This document shows positions 2-17,533 of a stretch of 19,979 bases of DNA, one piece after another. The notes below the pieces were generated by a model. That model searched no databases, was not told the origin of the DNA, and saw only the letters and a list, made by a program, of their open reading frames with translations. Position 1 is the first letter of the stretch. Every line of letters begins with the position of its first letter. Origin of the DNA: a virus; the UHGV virus genome UHGV-0128318; one strand, given 5' to 3'. Position numbers and translations under genes: made by a program.

Positions 2-1732
2 ACAGCCAACACATTCAATGCCTATATGAGCAGGGCCAGAAAACGGTTTGATGATAAACTTCATCATAGCTTTGAAAAAAATATACATCGCCTATCTGAA
101 AAGTATCCTTTATATAATGAGGAGCTATTGTCATGGCTTTCTCTACCTGCTGCCGATATTCGCCAGAGAATGTCAGCTTTACAGGCAAAATTAAAATTAA
201 TTCTCCCTCTATCAGAAGATTTATCTAATATCAGAATTGGCGATAACAAAAGTCATAACAAGTTATTGAAATTATCAAATAAATATAAAGAGTGGCAATT
301 CGCCATTTCTGATTTAACTAGCGATAACTGGAAAGATAAGCGCGATTATTTATATAAATTACTACAGCAAGGATCTGCCTTACTTGAGGAGTTGAATCAG
401 CTAAAAGTTAACCATGAGATTCTCTATCATCTTCAACTAAGCCCTGCCGAACGTGCATCTATCCAGCAACGATGGGCGGACGTTCTGCACAATAAAAAAC
501 GTAACGTGGTGGTCATTGATTACCCTAAATATATGCAAGCTATTTACGATATTATAAATAGCCCTGCTACATTAAATAATCTAAACACTCGTTCAGGTAT
601 GGCTCCTTTGGCATTTGCACTTGCTGCATTGTCAGGAAGACGAATGATTGAGATTATGTATCAAGGTACATTTACTGTTTCTGGTAAGTATACCGTTGAT
701 TTTTTAGGCCAAGCTAAAAAAAGAACTTCTGATGATATAACCAGAAAAATATATACATTATGCGAAGCAAAAACATTTGTTTATTTAATAAATGTACTTC
801 GCTCATGCCCAGCAGCATCTGATTTTGATGATGTCGTTAAAGGTTATGGAGATAACGACACACGCTCTGAAAACGGACGTATTAATGCCATATTAGCAAA
901 GGCTTTTAACCCGTGGGTTAAATCATTTTTCAAAGATGACCGCCGTGTTTATAAAGATAGTCGTGCTATTTATGCCCGTATTGCGTATGAAATGTTTTTC
1001 CGCGTAGATCCTCGTTGGAAAAACGTAGATGAAGATGTTTTCTTTATGGAAATTTTAGGCCATGACGATGAAAACACTCAATTACACTATAAGCAATTCA
1101 AGCTGGCCAACTTCTCAAAGACATGGAGGCCAAATACTGGAAACGAAAATACCAGGCTGGAAGCATTGCAGCAGCTTGATGACGAAATGCCTGGATTCGC
1201 CAGAGGAGATGCCGGGATTCGTCTGCATAACACAGTTAAGCAGCTGGTAGAGCAGGACCCCTCTATAAAAATCACGAACAGCACTCTAAGAGCGTTCAAA
1301 TTTAGCCCAACAATGATTAGTCGATACCTGGAATTTGCTGCTGATGCTCTGGGGCAATTTGTTGGCGAAAACGGACAATGGCAACTGAAAATAGATACTC
1401 CAGAAATCGTTATGCCTGACGAAGAAGAACTGGAAGCAATACCTGAACTGGCGGATGAATTATCAGAGGATGACGATCTGGATGACGACGAAATTGAGAT
1501 AGAGGAAGAGGAGGAGGAAGAGGAAGAGGAAGAGGAAGAGAGCGTAGAAGAACAGCAACCGCCTGCACCTTCTTCGCCTGTATCTAAGCCGGTATTTAAG
1601 CCGGTGAGAAATATTGGTGATGGCTCATACGTTGTTGAGTTTCATTATAATGGCCAGAATTATGCGTGGTCCGGCAGTGCAAACAGCCCCATGTCAGCAA
1701 TGCAGTTAGCATGGCTGACATATTTCGGTTAA
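2..1732 (+). CDS. telN: Protelomerase (telomere resolvase) TelN-like, 5'-truncated by the window edge. The frame is open from position 2 (TANTFNAYMSRARKRFDDKL...) and carries the tyrosine-recombinase-like catalytic region (...DSRAIYARIAYEMFF...) plus an acidic poly-Glu C-terminal tract.
   Basis: Translation matches my recollection of N15 TelN / phiKO2 TelK over most of its length. The ORF-track start at 26 is an internal Met; there is no stop upstream in frame. Position matches N15 synteny (telN ... repA-cB-cro). Confidence 0.9.
   Translation, partial: TANTFNAYMSRARKRFDDKLHHSFEKNIHRLSEKYPLYNEELLSWLSLPAADIRQRMSALQAKLKLILPLSEDLSNIRIGDNKSHNKLLKLSNKYKEWQFAISDLTSDNWKDKRDYLYKLLQQGSALLEELNQLKVNHEILYHLQLSPAERASIQQRWADVLHNKKRNVVVIDYPKYMQAIYDIINSPATLNNLNTRSGMAPLAFALAALSGRRMIEIMYQGTFTVSGKYTVDFLGQAKKRTSDDITRKIYTLCEAKTFVYLINVLRSCPAASDFDDVVKGYGDNDTRSENGRINAILAKAFNPWVKSFFKDDRRVYKDSRAIYARIAYEMFFRVDPRWKNVDEDVFFMEILGHDDENTQLHYKQFKLANFSKTWRPNTGNENTRLEALQQLDDEMPGFARGDAGIRLHNTVKQLVEQDPSIKITNSTLRAFKFSPTMISRYLEFAADALGQFVGENGQWQLKIDTPEIVMPDEEELEAIPELADELSEDDDLDDDEIEIEEEEEEEEEEEEESVEEQQPPAPSSPVSKPVFKPVRNIGDGSYVVEFHYNGQNYAWSGSANSPMSAMQLAWLTYFG
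1502..1550 (+). repeat. Uninterrupted GAG/GAA codon run encoding about 13 consecutive Glu inside telN
   Basis: Direct reading: gaggaagaggaggaggaagaggaagaggaagaggaagag. Confidence 0.9.
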
Positions 1733-4159: not shown

Positions 4160-4486
4160 TTAACCCCACTCACCATCAGCAAACAAAGCGTTATACTCTG
4201 ACAATGGTAGATGGTTGCCCTCGATGTAGAGATTCAGTTCATACTTCGTCTCCGGGTTTTCCTTGTCGGCTCGTTCCCAACGCTCAGCAGCCTCACGCGC
4301 CAATAACTCCACTGCTTTCAGATAATCCTCCGTACGGAACCAGCCAAAGATAAGGCCACGATCTGTTACAGCCCAGGCAACCTTTTTTTCTTCCTCCTGG
4401 ATAGCCTTAATGCGTCGATCGCATTCATCCCGGCAAAACTGCAGCTGACGGTAATCAAGTTTGTCCAAAAATGCAGTAGTAGACAT
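4160..4486 (-). CDS. Hypothetical cytoplasmic protein, 108 aa (MSTTAFLDKLDYRQLQFCRDECDRR...)
   Basis: ATG at 4486 preceded by GGGGAG; the track start at 4564 is an upstream extension without an RBS. Confidence 0.5.
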   Translation of the reverse strand: MSTTAFLDKLDYRQLQFCRDECDRRIKAIQEEEKKVAWAVTDRGLIFGWFRTEDYLKAVELLAREAAERWERADKENPETKYELNLYIEGNHLPLSEYNALFADGEWG

Positions 4487-4490
4487 ATTT

Positions 4491-4589
4491 TTACTCCCCG
4501 TTAACCGAAAAATCACGATAGAAACGTTTCCACATACGATAAGTCTGCGCGAGTTGTTCACCACGAAACATCGCCTTCCTGGCCTTCAT
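4491..4589 (-). CDS. Possible 32-aa micro-ORF (MKARKAMFRGEQLAQTYRMWKRFYRDFSVNGE) between repA and the next gene
   Basis: AAGGAAAA then ATG; its stop overlaps the RBS of the downstream gene. Too short to judge further. Confidence 0.25.
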   Translation of the reverse strand: MKARKAMFRGEQLAQTYRMWKRFYRDFSVNGE

Positions 4590-4674
4590 GTTTTCCTTGT
4601 GAGACTTTCGATCTATGAACCAAAACCATTGCTGGAACACACAAAGCAAGAGACACAAAGATAATATCCACTGA

Positions 4675-7600
4675 TTACCCATAGAAAGCGCCCTGCTCTT
4701 CGTAGCTGCATGGGCTATTCCCGGTAATGTATTCACGTAACCGCCGCAGTTCATTGCTGGATAAGTGATCCATGAACTCTGTGAGGTACAGAGAGGCAAA
4801 CGTCATAGCTATGCTGGCTGATGACCATGATGACATAGTGGCCAGCTCCTCACCGGAAAGCGCACTCATCGCCCAGGACTCAGGTACAACCACTGGCAAC
4901 ACAGCCAAAGCCTCAGAAATTACTGAATGAGGGGCGTTTTGAACCTGCTCGTTTGTGGATCGCGTTTTATCATCCATATATATATTGAGATCCAAATCGC
5001 GATCCATTTCGATGGCGGTCTTCTCGGCTTTACGCGTTTTCAGGGTTAGGCCATCTTTCTGACGCTGAGCAAGAATATCCAGCATAAATGCCGCTGATTC
5101 AGGCTCAACAAAACGCAAGGTTGGACGCTTATCGCCGTCTCTGCCGCGACGTTTACCTGTTTTAAGGCCAAGAGAGTCGCAAATGTTTTTAAACAACGCT
5201 TCCGGCACTTTAGGCTTCCCTTTTGGCGTCATAAAACCACCAATGTGCAGAACGTTATTCAACAGGTCACGGCGTTCGGCTGTCATGAGGTTATCTCGAG
5301 CGAATTTGAGACGCTCCTGAGTCGCCTCGCCGGTCATAGTCTCAGGGTTGATACCGCAGTCGATAAAGTACTGCCGGAGAGTTGCTGATTTAAGCGCATA
5401 GAAACCGCGCGCCCCGACTTCAACAGTAGGAGTAGCTTTTACCTTGTGATCGATTATTCCAGGGAATTTAGTTTTAAAGACATCATCAGCCTGCTCGCGA
5501 GTCATCGCGGTCACTACAAAATATTGCCACTGTCCCGCCTGACGGTATGCGTAGGTAAAATTGATGGCTGCTTCTTCCCGGTCGTAACGACGAGCTGTTA
5601 CCTCATCTAAAAGCATTGTTTCATAGCGGCGAACTTTGTCTCGAGCACCATCGAAATAGAATTTCAGCGTGCCTTCTTCAACCGGTAGTTTCAGTTCGTT
5701 TTCAATATCCCAGCGGACAAGTTTTGCCTGTTCTTCAAGCGTCAGCGCGCGTTTTTTTAGCAGTTCTTCACGCTCTGATTCTTGTGGAGTTTCTGTATTG
5801 AGGTGCAGATCCAGTGTCTGTTCCCACACAATATCCCGCGCTTCTTTACGCAGATCTTTACCGATATCATTCGCAGCATAATCGGTGGCCAGCGGTGATA
5901 CCTTATAACCGTCGCTGTGCATGATGCAGATCATGTTGCTGGCGTAGTCGTTACGCGCAGTCGCTTCAATTGCGGCTGCTTTAATTTTCATCCTGGTAAA
6001 GTCGGTATTGGCCACCCCCATTGATATACGGTCGCCATCGAAAACGACATCCGTAAGTTCACCGTTCATACCTGCGGTAGCAAGCAATGCCTGGGCGAAT
6101 GCTCGTTCTATTTTTTGCGGGTCAGTTTCACGTTTTGCACGAGCTTTATCAAAGCCGATAATAAATTCTTTTGCTGTACGGTCGCGGCGTAGCATTTGCA
6201 CTGCGTCGCTGGGTACAACTTCACCACAGAACATGCCGAAATGACGGTCAAAATGTTTTTGCTCAATCGACACGCCGGATGAAATAGACGGGCTATAAAT
6301 CAGGCCGTCGTATTTTTTGACCATCTTTTTCGGTTGATTGGTAAATGCTTCAACTTCTGGCTCTGGTTTGTTTTTCTGGTTTACACACAGAAATTTCTTA
6401 CCAGGAAAATGCATTCTCAGGGTGGCTGTCACATCTTCTGCAAAGGTGGAGCTGTCGGTGGCCAACATGATTTTTTCGCCATCCGATACAGCTTTCACCA
6501 CCTCGGTCATGATGCGATCTTTTTCTGTATAAAAAACCCGGATTGGCTCACCTGTTTCGCGGTTGCGAACATCAACAGGTAATTCAATTACGTGGATCTG
6601 CAGCCATGCCGGTAAACCTAGTTCTTCACGGCGTTTCATAGCCAGTTCAGCCAGGTCAACCAGTAGATCGTTCGCATCAGCATCCACCATGATTGGGTGT
6701 TGTTCCGTTCTGGCCAGCGCGTCAATTAGCGTATTGAATACAGCAACCGGGTTTTCCATAGCCCGACCGGAAAGAACGGCACGTAGCCCTTGCGTGGCCT
6801 CGTCAAAGCCAAAATAGTCGTGCTGGCGCATCAACGGTTGCCAGCAGTTTTTAACAATCGAGTTTATGCAGATGGTCAGTTTACTGGCGTATGGAGCCAT
6901 TTCCTGATAGCCAGGGTCCTGATAGTGCAGGATATCGGCTTTTACACCTTTTCCTTCTGTCATCATTTCCCACAGGCCACCAATAAGGGAGACACGGTGA
7001 GCAACAGAGATACCACGTTCTGAGCTATGCATTAACGGTCGTAACAATCCAGTAGATTTGCCGGAACCCATACCAGCACGGACGATGACTATCCCCTGTA
7101 GTGATTGCACGTACTTCAGGACATCATCGGTCATTACCGAAGTTTCAAAACGCTTATAGGTGATATGTTGAGGGCGTTTATTGGGATCAGTTATGCGTTC
7201 GCTGAAAGAGCGCGGAGCCTGGGCAATACGGCACTTTTTATTCAGGCGACGGGCAATGTGGTCTTTTACCGTAGCGCGATAGATATTTTCCAGTCCCATT
7301 TCACGCAGAACGATGCAGAACATGTTAAATAAATCTGACGGACTGTTAGGAACCGGGCAGGTTAGCATGCCAATATCCACCGCTCTCAGCAGCTCTTTGG
7401 CAAAAGTACGACGGTTATCCCGCTTAATTGTCTTCAGGCGGTTGAGCGTCAGAGATAGCAAATCAGTGCCAGTTTTCAGGCGGTTTGCAGTTGCAAACAG
7501 TTGACGTGCTGTTTCACGAAGTCCACGTAGTTTGTGCAGGTCGTTGAAGTCACTGCACTCCATTTGCGGATCGTCTTCAAAAGTTGGATAGACGCAGCGG

Positions 7601-8664
7601 ACATCGTTGAATTTCGATAAGATTTCATAGCCAGTCCGCAGGCCGGTATTCCCTTTTCCTTCTGTAGCTGATTTCCGGTCATTATCCAGTGCGCAGGTGA
7701 TTTTTGCCGCCGGGTACATGTTTACCAGTTGTTCCACAACATGAACCATGTTGTTAGCGGATACAGCGACAACCACAGCGTCAAAGCGTTTATCTTTTTT
7801 CGTGGCAAGCCAGATGGATGCACCAGTAGCAAAACCTTCTGTAACAGCGATGTTTTGCGCCCCTTTCAGCTCACCGATAACAAAGCAGGCACCGACGAAA
7901 TCGCCGCTGGTTACGGCGCTGGTCTGGTATTTTCCACCTTGTTTGTCGATTCGCTGCCAACCAACAATACGACCATCGTAACGACCGTCCAGGTGAGCCA
8001 GAGGGATAGCCATATACGTGGTTGGCCCCCTGCTCCATTTTGCGCTGTCGTGACTGGTCACGCGACGCACATCACACGAATTAAAAACGTCACGAATACC
8101 TTTTTTAATCGCATATGGCCATGAGCCGTCTTCTGCAGGAGCATGTTCCCAAGCACTGTGGAATGCCAGCCATCCCAGCAAACGTTCATGGTCCATTTGG
8201 TTGTTTTTCAGGTCATTAATTCGTTTTTGTTCTTCACGGCGACGACGTGCTTCACGTTCTATTCTTGCCCGTTCTTCTTCCGGTTGTGCGACCACGGTCG
8301 CATTATTCCGTTGTTGCTCACGGCGATATTCAGAAAACAGGAAGGAGAAACCGCTCCATGAGCCAGCATCGCTGCCTTTATGGACGAAGTTAATGAACGG
8401 GTAATCAATCCCTTTGCTGTGTTCCAGTCGGGAGTAAATTTCTACGCGTCCTTTGAGGCTCTTCTCGAGAGCTTCTGGAGATGTTTTATTGTATGAAGAG
8501 TAACGCTCAACACCCCCGCGAGGGTTGAGTTGGATGTTGTCGGAACAGGCAGACCAGTTGATACCAGCCATCTGTGCCAGCTCGGTTAGTTCATCCCGTG
8601 CTGCTTCAATTAGCGAGAACGGATCGCTGCCAAAGCGATCCGCATAGAAATCGTTTAATGTCAT
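4675..8664 (-). CDS. repA: RepA-type multidomain replication protein (primase-helicase), 1329 aa, with a Walker A motif (GMGSGKST)
   Basis: Size and position (next to cB, transcribed away from cro) match N15 repA, which is about 1.3 kaa; NTP-binding motif seen. All + strand track ORFs between 5616 and 8404 are antisense artefacts of this gene. Confidence 0.9.
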   Translation of the reverse strand: MTLNDFYADRFGSDPFSLIEAARDELTELAQMAGINWSACSDNIQLNPRGGVERYSSYNKTSPEALEKSLKGRVEIYSRLEHSKGIDYPFINFVHKGSDAGSWSGFSFLFSEYRREQQRNNATVVAQPEEERARIEREARRRREEQKRINDLKNNQMDHERLLGWLAFHSAWEHAPAEDGSWPYAIKKGIRDVFNSCDVRRVTSHDSAKWSRGPTTYMAIPLAHLDGRYDGRIVGWQRIDKQGGKYQTSAVTSGDFVGACFVIGELKGAQNIAVTEGFATGASIWLATKKDKRFDAVVVAVSANNMVHVVEQLVNMYPAAKITCALDNDRKSATEGKGNTGLRTGYEILSKFNDVRCVYPTFEDDPQMECSDFNDLHKLRGLRETARQLFATANRLKTGTDLLSLTLNRLKTIKRDNRRTFAKELLRAVDIGMLTCPVPNSPSDLFNMFCIVLREMGLENIYRATVKDHIARRLNKKCRIAQAPRSFSERITDPNKRPQHITYKRFETSVMTDDVLKYVQSLQGIVIVRAGMGSGKSTGLLRPLMHSSERGISVAHRVSLIGGLWEMMTEGKGVKADILHYQDPGYQEMAPYASKLTICINSIVKNCWQPLMRQHDYFGFDEATQGLRAVLSGRAMENPVAVFNTLIDALARTEQHPIMVDADANDLLVDLAELAMKRREELGLPAWLQIHVIELPVDVRNRETGEPIRVFYTEKDRIMTEVVKAVSDGEKIMLATDSSTFAEDVTATLRMHFPGKKFLCVNQKNKPEPEVEAFTNQPKKMVKKYDGLIYSPSISSGVSIEQKHFDRHFGMFCGEVVPSDAVQMLRRDRTAKEFIIGFDKARAKRETDPQKIERAFAQALLATAGMNGELTDVVFDGDRISMGVANTDFTRMKIKAAAIEATARNDYASNMICIMHSDGYKVSPLATDYAANDIGKDLRKEARDIVWEQTLDLHLNTETPQESEREELLKKRALTLEEQAKLVRWDIENELKLPVEEGTLKFYFDGARDKVRRYETMLLDEVTARRYDREEAAINFTYAYRQAGQWQYFVVTAMTREQADDVFKTKFPGIIDHKVKATPTVEVGARGFYALKSATLRQYFIDCGINPETMTGEATQERLKFARDNLMTAERRDLLNNVLHIGGFMTPKGKPKVPEALFKNICDSLGLKTGKRRGRDGDKRPTLRFVEPESAAFMLDILAQRQKDGLTLKTRKAEKTAIEMDRDLDLNIYMDDKTRSTNEQVQNAPHSVISEALAVLPVVVPESWAMSALSGEELATMSSWSSASIAMTFASLYLTEFMDHLSSNELRRLREYITGNSPCSYEEQGAFYG
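4950..5010. other. Candidate internal replication origin element: AT-rich stretch (catatatatatt) with three GATC sites within about 50 bp, inside the 3' end of repA
   Basis: Seen in sequence; N15 ori is known to lie within the 3' part of repA. Confidence 0.3.
8049..8062. repeat. Family-2 palindrome cgtgactggtcacg inside the repA 5' coding region
   Basis: Perfect 6-bp arms around a 2-bp centre; same core as 3366-3385 and 14369-14382. Confidence 0.6.
8287..8302. repeat. SopB-type centromere-like palindrome tgcgacc-ac-ggtcgca (family 1), inside repA coding sequence
   Basis: 7-bp perfect arms; core GACCACGGTC resembles the F sopC binding site TGGGACCACGGTCCCA; four more copies in the window. 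Confidence 0.5.
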
Positions 8665-8909: not shown

Positions 8910-9506
8910 TCATCTACCCTCAACCATGAATGATTTGATCGTTCCGACTATTTGGTGAACAAATTCAAGATCGCTTTTCCTGAAGATGGCGCGTTGTGAG
9001 TTTGTTCCATCCAGATAGTAATTTTCATCATCAAAACGGGCCAGGCGCTGGATAGTGATATTTCCTGCAGTATCACGAACCAGAACATCCTCGCCGGGGA
9101 CCAGTTCCAGCGCAGAATCGACCAGGAGAAAATCGCCTGGCTGATAGTTTCCCTGCGTAAGATTGCTGATAGTTAACGCATACACAGTATTGCGCTGGCT
9201 GATGAATGGCAGGAATCGCTCAGTATTTGGAACCTGTCCCGGCTTCCACTCTTCATCCGGCCCACTTTCAGTTGTGCCAATAACAGGAATGCGATCAGGG
9301 TCATATTCTGTCCCATATAGCACCCAATGCACTGGCTTGCGTAAGCACTTAGCCAGGGCAATACCTATCTCCAGTGACGGCATTACGTCGCCACGTTCTA
9401 AGTTTTGGACGCCTGCTATAGAGATATCGACAGCCTCAGCAACTTCTCGCAACGTCAGCTTCATCTCTAAACGGCGTGCTTTCAGTCGTTCGCCTCGTGT
9501 TTTCAT
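8910..9506 (-). CDS. cB: Prophage repressor CB (lambda CI-like: N-terminal HTH, C-terminal S24/LexA-like domain), 198 aa
   Basis: HTH region LTLREVAEAVDISIAGVQNLERG at the N-terminus and a C-terminal domain of repressor size; divergent from cro across an operator region. Confidence 0.85.
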   Translation of the reverse strand: MKTRGERLKARRLEMKLTLREVAEAVDISIAGVQNLERGDVMPSLEIGIALAKCLRKPVHWVLYGTEYDPDRIPVIGTTESGPDEEWKPGQVPNTERFLPFISQRNTVYALTISNLTQGNYQPGDFLLVDSALELVPGEDVLVRDTAGNITIQRLARFDDENYYLDGTNSQRAIFRKSDLEFVHQIVGTIKSFMVEGR

Positions 9507-9528
9507 AGCTTAATCATAAATGATCTTC

Positions 9529-9544
9529 TTATAGCTGGCTATAA
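9529..9544. promoter_or_regulatory. Operator palindrome ttatagc-tg-gctataa (candidate CB/Cro operator 1)
   Basis: 16-bp inverted repeat in the cB-cro intergenic region; second copy 26 bp away. Confidence 0.6.
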
Positions 9545-9554
9545 AATTTATTTA

Positions 9555-9570
9555 TTATAGCTGGCTTTAA
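9555..9570. promoter_or_regulatory. Operator palindrome ttatagctggctttaa (candidate operator 2, one mismatch to operator 1)
   Basis: Near-identical direct copy of the 16-mer at 9529-9544. Confidence 0.6.
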
Positions 9571-9597
9571 TTGTTGTTTATTGTTTATAATAACAAC

Positions 9598-9819
9598 ATG
9601 AAACCAGAAGAACTTATTCGCCATTTTGGCAGTGTAGAAAAAGCAGCGGCAGGGGTAGGTGTAACACCCGGAGCTGTTTACCAATGGTTAACCGCTGGAG
9701 AGATTCCTTCATTGCGGCAAAGCGATATTGAAGTTCGTACTGCTTATAAGCTGAAGAGTGACTTTACAACTCGGCGGGTAAAGCAGTCGATTAAGGAGAG
9801 TCGTAAGCGTGGAGCTTGA
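9598..9819 (+). CDS. cro: Cro-like small HTH regulator, 73 aa (MKPEELIRHFGSVEKAAAGVGVTPGAVYQWL...)
   Basis: Divergent from cB; HTH motif; ATG at 9598 preferred over the track's TTG at 9571. A TATAAT hexamer sits at 9586-9591 only 6 nt upstream, so the mRNA may be leaderless. Confidence 0.7.
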   Translation: MKPEELIRHFGSVEKAAAGVGVTPGAVYQWLTAGEIPSLRQSDIEVRTAYKLKSDFTTRRVKQSIKESRKRGA

Positions 9820-16408: not shown

Positions 16409-16422
16409 GCGATGCGCATCGC
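16409..16422. promoter_or_regulatory. Perfect 14-bp palindrome gcgatgcgcatcgc overlapping the first in-frame ATG of the methyltransferase ORF
   Basis: Seen directly. Confidence 0.4.
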
Positions 16423-17533
16423 CGGGTTAGCTTACCCAGGCAAAAAAATAATAGCTATGTTCAAAACCACTAATATTCATGGCGCACAACTCGTTTGCGC
16501 AGATTCTCTGCAATTTATCAAAACCATCCCTGATAACTCGGTCAATTTGATTGCAACAGACCCACCATACTTCGGCGTAAAGGCTAACGCATGGGATAAC
16601 CAGTGGGATAGCGATGCTGACTTTTTGGGGTGGATTGACGAATTTTTGGCAGAATTTTGGCGGATATTGGCCCCTAATGGCAGCCTGTATATGTTTACCG
16701 GCTCTCGCCTTGCGTCAAAAATTGAATTATTAACTCGCGACCGTTTCAATGTTCTGAACCATATCATTTGGGCTAAACCCAGTGGTATGTGGCGCGGTTG
16801 TCATAAAGAAAGTTTAAGGGCTTATTTTCCTGCTACTGAAAGAATATTATTTGCAGAGCATTACGGCGCGTCAGGTTATGCTAAAGGTCAGTCAGGTTAT
16901 GCTTCAAAATGTGCAGATTTAAGAAAAAATATTTTTTCTCCACTAATTGATGCTTTTTCGCTGGCTCGCCGTCAGTTAGATATATCAGCCGCAGACATTA
17001 ATTCAGCGACAGGAAAGCAGATGTGTTCACACTGGTTTTCTTATTCGCAGTGGCGGCTTCCATCATTAATTGATTTTAATAAACTATGCGAATTATTTCG
17101 CAGGAAGGCAGATTCACTCGGTGTCCCGTGTCCATATCCTTTTAATGTTGATTATTCAGAACATGAAAAGCGTTATAGCGATCTGAAATTGCATTATGAG
17201 GAAGTAAAGAAGCAGTATGATGATTTGAAGGCTCAGTATGAAAATTTACGCCGTCCATTTCATGTTACTGCTGATGTACCTTATACCGATGTATGGGAGT
17301 TTCCTCCTGTGCAATATTATCCTGGCAAGCACCCATGTGAAAAACCTGCAGCGATGATGGAACATATTATAAAGAGTAGTTCACGCCCCGGAGATATCGT
17401 TGCCGATTTCTTTATGGGATCAGGCTCAACTATTAAAGCTGCGCTGAAGTTAGGACGTCAGGCAATAGGTATTGAGATTGAGGGCGAACGTTATCTTCAG
17501 ACAGTTGATGAAGTGAAAAAGTTATTTGAGTAA
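16412..17533 (+). CDS. Orphan DNA methyltransferase of the N6-adenine/N4-cytosine amino-MTase family (beta-class: DPPY motif N-terminal, FxGxG motif C-terminal)
   Basis: Motifs IATDPPYF and DFFMGSGST; no adjacent restriction endonuclease gene. The true start may be the ATG at 16457 (MFKTTNIHG...). Confidence 0.85.
   Translation: MRIAGLAYPGKKIIAMFKTTNIHGAQLVCADSLQFIKTIPDNSVNLIATDPPYFGVKANAWDNQWDSDADFLGWIDEFLAEFWRILAPNGSLYMFTGSRLASKIELLTRDRFNVLNHIIWAKPSGMWRGCHKESLRAYFPATERILFAEHYGASGYAKGQSGYASKCADLRKNIFSPLIDAFSLARRQLDISAADINSATGKQMCSHWFSYSQWRLPSLIDFNKLCELFRRKADSLGVPCPYPFNVDYSEHEKRYSDLKLHYEEVKKQYDDLKAQYENLRRPFHVTADVPYTDVWEFPPVQYYPGKHPCEKPAAMMEHIIKSSSRPGDIVADFFMGSGSTIKAALKLGRQAIGIEIEGERYLQTVDEVKKLFE

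Follow-up and report, generated by a model that had tools for sequence, protein, structure and literature searches.

The stretch of DNA analyzed here (the window; 19,979 nucleotides) belongs to an N15-like telomere phage-plasmid of Escherichia coli. Its repA region is closest to that of the Escherichia phage PhiR46_1 (98.5% identity), followed by YDC107_1 (94%); the E. coli plasmid CP088379 matches positions 4400-5700 at 100% identity, and a distant blastn search returned 213 plasmid records carrying the 3' region of repA. The principal landmarks are as follows.

26-1732: telN
4675-8664, minus strand: repA (3990 bp; 1329 amino acids), encoding a multidomain primase-helicase initiator and the sole long open reading frame at the patch described below
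8285-8302: partition site TGTGCGACCACGGTCGCA, identical to the site annotated in phiKO2 and lying apart from the patch
8910-9506: gene for a cB-type repressor

The window further encodes a Bro-N antirepressor, Q, an N6/N4 DNA methylase and a lysozyme, and co-oriented small genes come after repA. The neighborhood of telN, antirepressor, repA, cB, cro and Q is shared with N15, and the presence of telN, repA and the cB/cro module matches the setting in which the intragenic origin of N15/PY54-type plasmids is found. RepA contains a Toprim domain (Toprim_3) and a Herpes_ori_bp helicase domain with a UL9-like helicase signature, and matches the NCBIfam family CyRepA1 (259 bits); a comparison with PDB sequences gave no match. 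At the amino acid level it is 75% identical to N15 gp37, 75% to phiKO2 gp35 and 49% to PY54 RepA, and approximately 30% identical to the RepA proteins of VP882 and phiHAP-1. Nucleotide identity across repA is approximately 70% with N15 and 54% with PY54, so that the window represents a lineage different from that of N15. Small plus-strand open reading frames of 35-52 amino acids overlap the patch, with no evidence of being genes.

The original prediction pointed to three GATC sites and an alternating AT run, within about 50 bp of one another, in the 3' portion of repA, and all of these were found at the coordinates given. The GATC sites (4958-4961, 4989-4992 and 5001-5004) lie inside repA, and the AT run, CATATATATATT at 4975-4986, alternates perfectly. 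The patch corresponds to repA codons 1219-1239 of 1329, 276-336 nt ahead of the stop, and its sense strand reads GTGGATCGCGATT-TGGATCT-CAATATATATATGGATGAT-AAAACGCGATCCAC. The parts distinguished in the course of the analysis are listed here.

4921-5015: nucleotide-constrained element, proposed core region of the origin; synonymous identity is about 1.0 almost throughout the codons between 5013 and 4923
4921-4940: flanking conserved block, AATTACTGAATGAGGGGCGT on the plus strand; synonymous identity is about 1.0 at codons 4923-4938
4950-4960, minus strand: repeat R1, the inverted copy, ATCCACAAACG on that strand; aligns with the N15 repeat_region 1421-1431(-) of record U63085 and overlaps the GATC at 4958-4961
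4956-4968: left arm of an inverted repeat, TGGATCGCGTTTT; 13 nt, 92% complementary to 4994-5006
4965-4988: AT-rich spacer and proposed DNA-unwinding element, TTTTATCATCCATATATATATTGA; contains the least stable 20-40-bp duplexes of repA
4989-4999, plus strand: repeat R2, GATCCAAATCG; identical to the U63085 repeat_region 1460-1470(+) and includes the GATC at 4989-4992
4994-5006: right arm of the inverted repeat, AAATCGCGATCCA; pairs with the left arm, with 25 nt between the arms
5001-5011, plus strand: repeat R3, GATCCATTTCG; aligns with the U63085 repeat_region 1472-1482(+) and includes the GATC at 5001-5004

R3 lies 12 bp from R2 and differs from it at two positions. The 11-bp repeat has no further copies in the window beyond chance expectation, and none nearby at up to two mismatches.

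Judged by composition alone, the clustering of GATC falls short of significance (P about 0.2-0.4). Its span of 43 nt makes it the tightest group of three in the window (the runner-up spans 121 nt), but a cluster this tight arose in 19% of random placements of the 48 sites and in 42% of Markov-1 sequences. GATC is depleted across the window as a whole, with these 48 sites against 73.6±8.4 expected. The AT run is the more unusual of the two features: the AT content of the spacer falls in the top 0.1% within repA, and whether duplexes of 20, 25, 30 or 40 bp are considered, the least stable one in the whole gene begins at 4965-4968. The duplex at 4967-4986, at -18.4 kcal/mol, compares with a repA-wide 20-mer mean of -26.8 (sd 2.3), and the least stable duplex region of the gene, 4965-4997, is flanked by the 13-nt inverted repeat. 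What raises the patch above chance is nonetheless comparative evidence and not composition.

The first line of such evidence comes from N15 itself. An early N15 repA record, U63085, annotates three 11-bp repeat_regions at 1421-1431(-), 1460-1470(+) and 1472-1482(+), consisting of ATCCAAAACAG (inverted), GATCCAAATCG and GATCCACTTCG, which flank ATGTATATCTATATTTA. In a DNA alignment, positions 4950-5011 of the window match this segment base for base, so that the annotated repeats map exactly to 4950-4960, 4989-4999 and 5001-5011, and in N15 as in the window the GATC sites are spaced 31 and 12 bp apart. The internal origin of N15 and phiKO2 would have its counterpart at the same place in the orthologous repA, with three GATCC-type repeats around ATATnTATAT in both; the window differs from N15 in the perfect alternation of its AT run and in its longer inverted-repeat arms (13 nt as against 7-8 nt). 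The flanking block at 4921-4940 is conserved in N15 and phiKO2 and may be an accessory part of the origin.

The more distant PY54 retains the core when aligned at the DNA level, keeping GATC, TATATCTATAT (a run of the ATATnTATAT type), GATCC and GATCC. It, too, presents an AT-rich spacer between inverted-repeat arms (25-nt spacer, 11-nt arms) approximately 230-280 nt before the repA stop, but with four GATC sites, different arms (GATCTAACTTG / CAAGTTGGATC) and another reading-frame context. The motif ATATAnATAT does not vary among N15-type clades, and PY54 retains it. Within the inverted repeat, only the TGGATC/GATCCA 6-mers are invariant across clades and no compensatory changes were observed; a pair of protein half-sites therefore fits the repeat better than a required hairpin does.

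The records of N15, phiKO2 and PY54 contain no rep_origin feature. The PY54 origin was reportedly assigned in 2005 by Ziegelin to a 212-bp fragment in the 3' portion of repA, and Mardanov and Ravin are said to have placed the origin in the 3' part of repA in 2006. That N15-type plasmids initiate within repA, as the original prediction assumed, accords with published accounts of N15, which starts bidirectional replication inside this gene (PMC2847241, PMC4165912); these accounts locate the start no more closely than the gene itself. From the alignments, we infer that the patch coincides with the experimentally mapped N15/PY54 origin.

The second line of evidence is constraint on synonymous positions. 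Forty unique N15/PY54-type repA genes were collected from phage records, plasmids and IMG/VR loci and codon-aligned (1377 codon columns), a scan of genome contigs adding three repA loci only; the constraint test used 16 representatives with less than 96% identity, reduced from these 40. Synonymous-codon identity is 0.58 gene-wide and reaches its 30-codon maximum, 0.89, at 4921-5010, a value attained in 0 of 2000 column permutations; the 20-codon maximum is 0.90, at 4927-4986. Amino acid identity over the constrained stretch is only 0.55-0.64, among the lowest in RepA. Codon by codon, synonymous identity stays near 1.0 from 5013 to 4923 with few exceptions, placing the extent of the element at approximately 4921-5015. 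The earlier estimate of 4950-5010 holds for the span of the N15 repeats, whereas the functional element is somewhat larger.

Sequence pairs with the same residue at a variable column are usually closely related, so strictly between-clade pairs were tested separately. Between the window group and the Klebsiella 85% group, synonymous identity was 0.92 vs 0.50 (P<0.0005), and raw third-position identity was also significant. The Klebsiella group against the N15 group gave 0.79 vs 0.53, which is higher than anywhere else in the gene (family-wise P=0.045). For the window group against the N15 group the values were 0.76 vs 0.45 (P=0.059), ranking second to a block at 8032-8109, and constraint against the N15 subgroup is borderline only, after family-wise correction. 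The constraint signal is real but weaker at this deepest comparison, in which sequence differences affect the AT run and one arm. When the alignment with PY54 was guided by the protein, no synonymous signal emerged, the DNA element being offset against the aligned residues. Searches of IMG/VR with a 19-mer core found 38 matches inside N15-like repA genes, all with the full element, and elsewhere only 12 chance matches, in AT-rich contigs without RepA. Taken across these genes, selection acts on the DNA of the patch independently of the encoded protein.

We consider it likely, with good though not complete confidence, that the patch forms the core of the origin from which an N15-type telomere phage-plasmid replicates, both as a plasmid and lytically, and that this core sits inside the 3' part of repA. 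This reading follows from the repeats aligned to N15, the synonymous constraint, the lowest duplex stability of the gene, the inverted repeat and the core kept in PY54; the U63085 repeats, the constraint maximum and the other features named also bear out the original choice of this patch as the most plausible ori core. The element is very probably the ortholog, and the expected counterpart, of the known N15-type element in a lineage not yet studied, rather than a new kind of origin. Cumulative GC skew, which had been suggested as a check, proved uninformative, its minimum at approximately 9400-9600 reflecting the divergent cB/cro switch in gene orientation, away from the patch.

In the proposed mechanism, RepA, in which primase, helicase and origin-binding protein are fused, would recognize the TGGATC-containing repeats, of which two stand in direct orientation at 4989 and 5001, 12 bp apart, and a third is inverted, at 4950-4961. 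The AT-rich spacer of 25-27 bp (4965-4988) would then melt, presumably as the starting point of unwinding, after which RepA would load its own helicase and prime synthesis, with replication proceeding bidirectionally and without DnaA. The three to five GATCs in and around the spacer would probably make initiation subject to Dam methylation and SeqA, much as at P1 oriR and oriC.

The main residual rival is a cis-regulatory site, acting in copy control, incompatibility, binding of SeqA or another host protein, or RepA autoregulation, with true initiation elsewhere in repA. Spaced 12 and 31 bp apart, the GATC sites would be well placed for SeqA, and the block at 8032-8109, comparably constrained and about equal to the patch in one clade comparison, offers a candidate for the other place of initiation. 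That block carries CGTGAC half-sites and is not AT-rich. In the patch, three classic marks of an origin occur together, namely repeats, an inverted repeat and the duplex of lowest stability in the gene. The N15 authors, moreover, annotated exactly these repeats, and the 212-bp PY54 origin is reportedly likewise in the 3' portion of repA. We regard a purely regulatory role as unlikely.

Less probable still is that the constraint reflects RNA or transcription, through a promoter (internal or antisense), through termination or attenuation, or through mRNA folding that influences expression of repA or the genes downstream. The single strand at 4940-5020 does fold better than shuffled sequences (-14.1 kcal/mol, z=-2.9), the AT-rich run resembles -10 elements and the small genes behind repA are co-oriented with it. 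Against this, no sigma-70-like promoter was detected on either strand between 4300 and 5600, and the consensus fold retains only six invariant pairs with zero covariation. No Rfam family was matched, the best hit, a miRNA model, scoring 19.9 bits where the gathering score is 95, and since N15 keeps arms of only 7-8 bp, the long hairpin is specific to the lineage of the window. As for the patch being a coding by-product of an Asp/Ile/Tyr-rich, loosely constrained RepA tail with no cis function, all three GATCs do arise where codons for D/R/L/S residues meet (GAT(Asp)-C and cGA-TCC) and neither the placement nor the Markov null makes the cluster significant, but synonymous positions are nearly frozen where amino acids vary and PY54 keeps the DNA motif despite differing encoded residues and protein alignment, which makes this explanation very improbable.

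Returning to the origin reading, the GATC sites around the spacer raise the matter of host control. In 39 of the 40 N15/PY54-type genes the three most closely spaced GATCs of repA are found 266-378 nt from the end of the gene, with three to five GATCs there; four or five occur in the Klebsiella clades, one N15 subgroup and PY54, at partly differing positions, and the extra sites are apparently independent gains. The E. albertii/YDC107 lineage has lost the middle GATC, and in VP882-type genes the analogous element is free of GATC, so that GATC is not indispensable. A comparison was also drawn with P1 oriR and, for likeness in TGGATCT and AT runs, with the 13-mers of E. coli oriC. P1 oriR contains TGGATCT units among short AT runs, GGGATCTATATGGATCTAATTGGGATCTGTATGG, with five annotated Dam sites beside the initiator sites, and the sense strand of the window, TTGGATCTCAATATATATATGGAT, resembles this Dam-site region, in resemblance only. 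In P1 oriR, which is located outside the rep gene, 19-bp RepA iterons and a DnaA box stand beside the GATC region, whereas the patch has neither iterons nor a DnaA box, is served by a primase-helicase initiator and is intragenic. Among the papers searched, none links N15 with Dam or SeqA. Because GATCs are kept, and repeatedly gained, around the spacer in a GATC-depleted genome, and because the TGGATCT-plus-AT motif mirrors the P1 oriR core, host Dam methylation and SeqA may gate initiation at this DnaA-independent, RepA-driven origin.

The layout extends beyond N15-type plasmids. VP882 has 12-nt arms (TGGGGACACTTC/GAAGTATCCCCA) and a 27-nt AT-rich spacer at the same relative place in repA, and among VP882/phiHAP-1 relatives the inverted-repeat element forms a conserved island within a poorly conserved stretch. 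The inverted-repeat arrangement is thus common to the window, PY54 and VP882, while the arm sequences differ. RepA types represented by N15, PY54 and VP882/phiHAP-1 may share one origin cassette in the 3' tail of repA, in which inverted arms of 11-13 nt would enclose a spacer of 25-27 nt and the sequence of the arms may set replicon specificity. The combined proposal, that Dam/SeqA gates this origin and that one cassette is common to all telomere-phage RepA lineages, is tentative, and we hold it with less than even confidence.

The analysis narrows the likely origin of widespread linear phage-plasmids of E. coli and Klebsiella to a 95-bp segment. This should be useful for annotating replicons, for predicting incompatibility and replicon specificity, and for trimming N15-based linear cloning vectors; free recoding of this region of repA is inadvisable. 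The possible link to Dam and SeqA and the layout common to distant RepA lineages are modest extensions of existing knowledge.

Other known types of origin were compared with the patch. An iteron-type theta origin, with at least three tandem direct repeats of approximately 17-22 bp, does not describe its two direct and one inverted 11-bp repeats. A DnaA-dependent origin was likewise rejected: the DnaA box TTATCCACA, at up to one mismatch, does not occur in or near repA, and the whole window has two matches only (3820 and 4117), outside repA and below chance expectation. No IHF consensus was found near the patch. The alpha protein of satellite phage P4 also combines primase, helicase and origin binding in one polypeptide that acts on short repeats, but in P4 these sites, ori and crr, are located away from the alpha gene itself, and the repeats are different. 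An intragenic origin in an initiator gene is also known from repABC plasmids, whose oriV lies inside repC at or near an A+T-rich stretch and whose initiator is reported to be cis-acting (PMC3155836); the protein family, host range and sequence are unrelated to those of the window.

The candidate origin core in the 3' part of repA is bracketed by a longer imperfect inverted repeat, the left arm of which is the conserved block AATTACTGAATGAGGGGCG, and an element of similar design is found in the repA gene of telomere phage VP882.

4921-4940 and 5086-5102: the bracketing imperfect inverted repeat; its 17-nt arms are 82% complementary, with 146 nt between them.
L057 (the VP882 locus) 4962-5012: inverted repeat with AT-rich spacer, ~190-240 nt before the repA stop codon.

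In VP882, 12-nt arms (TGGGGACACTTC and GAAGTATCCCCA) are separated by a 27-nt AT-rich spacer containing TTATATATACA, and the phiHAP-1-type loci (L058 and L062-L067) retain GGGACAC...GTATCCC amid poorly conserved surroundings. The VP882/phiHAP-1 element shares the inverted-repeat and spacer layout of its N15 and PY54 equivalents but differs from them in arm sequence and in carrying no GATC. Judged by this arrangement, it may represent the unmapped origin of hapunavirus-type telomere phages.

Cumulative GC skew, proposed in the original prediction as a check on origin position, proved uninformative as an origin marker: its minimum in the window falls at 9400-9600, the divergent cB/cro promoter region, and the skew tracks the direction of transcription, not replication.

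GATC is rarer than expected across the whole window, with 48 sites observed versus 73.6±8.4 in dinucleotide-preserving shuffles, all of which contained at least 48. The window also encodes a DNA methyltransferase.

16412-17533, + strand: N6/N4 DNA methyltransferase gene, 373 aa (PF01555, E=1e-46).

If this enzyme acts on GATC, the phage would encode its own modifier of the origin GATC sites.

Further sites lie toward the 5' end of repA. The sequence TGTGCGACCACGGTCGCA at 8285-8302 is identical to one annotated as a 'putative plasmid partitioning site' within phiKO2 gene 35, and the location of this putative site inside repA agrees with the report of an N15 centromere within repA (PMC2847241). 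The second-strongest peak of synonymous constraint in the repA codon alignment (0.78-0.82) occupies 8032-8109, where CGCGTGACCAGTCACGAC is invariant on the sense strand and includes a palindrome.

8049-8062, + strand: palindrome CGTGAC-CA-GTCACG.

A third CGTGAC half-site is located ~35 nt upstream of the palindrome (ATTCGTGACGT), and the block may constitute an additional protein-binding site inside repA. Synonymous identity is also elevated (0.82) over the first 20 codons of the gene (8605-8664), which include two GATC sites at 8622 and 8637; here, constraint may reflect requirements of translation initiation or of an operator.
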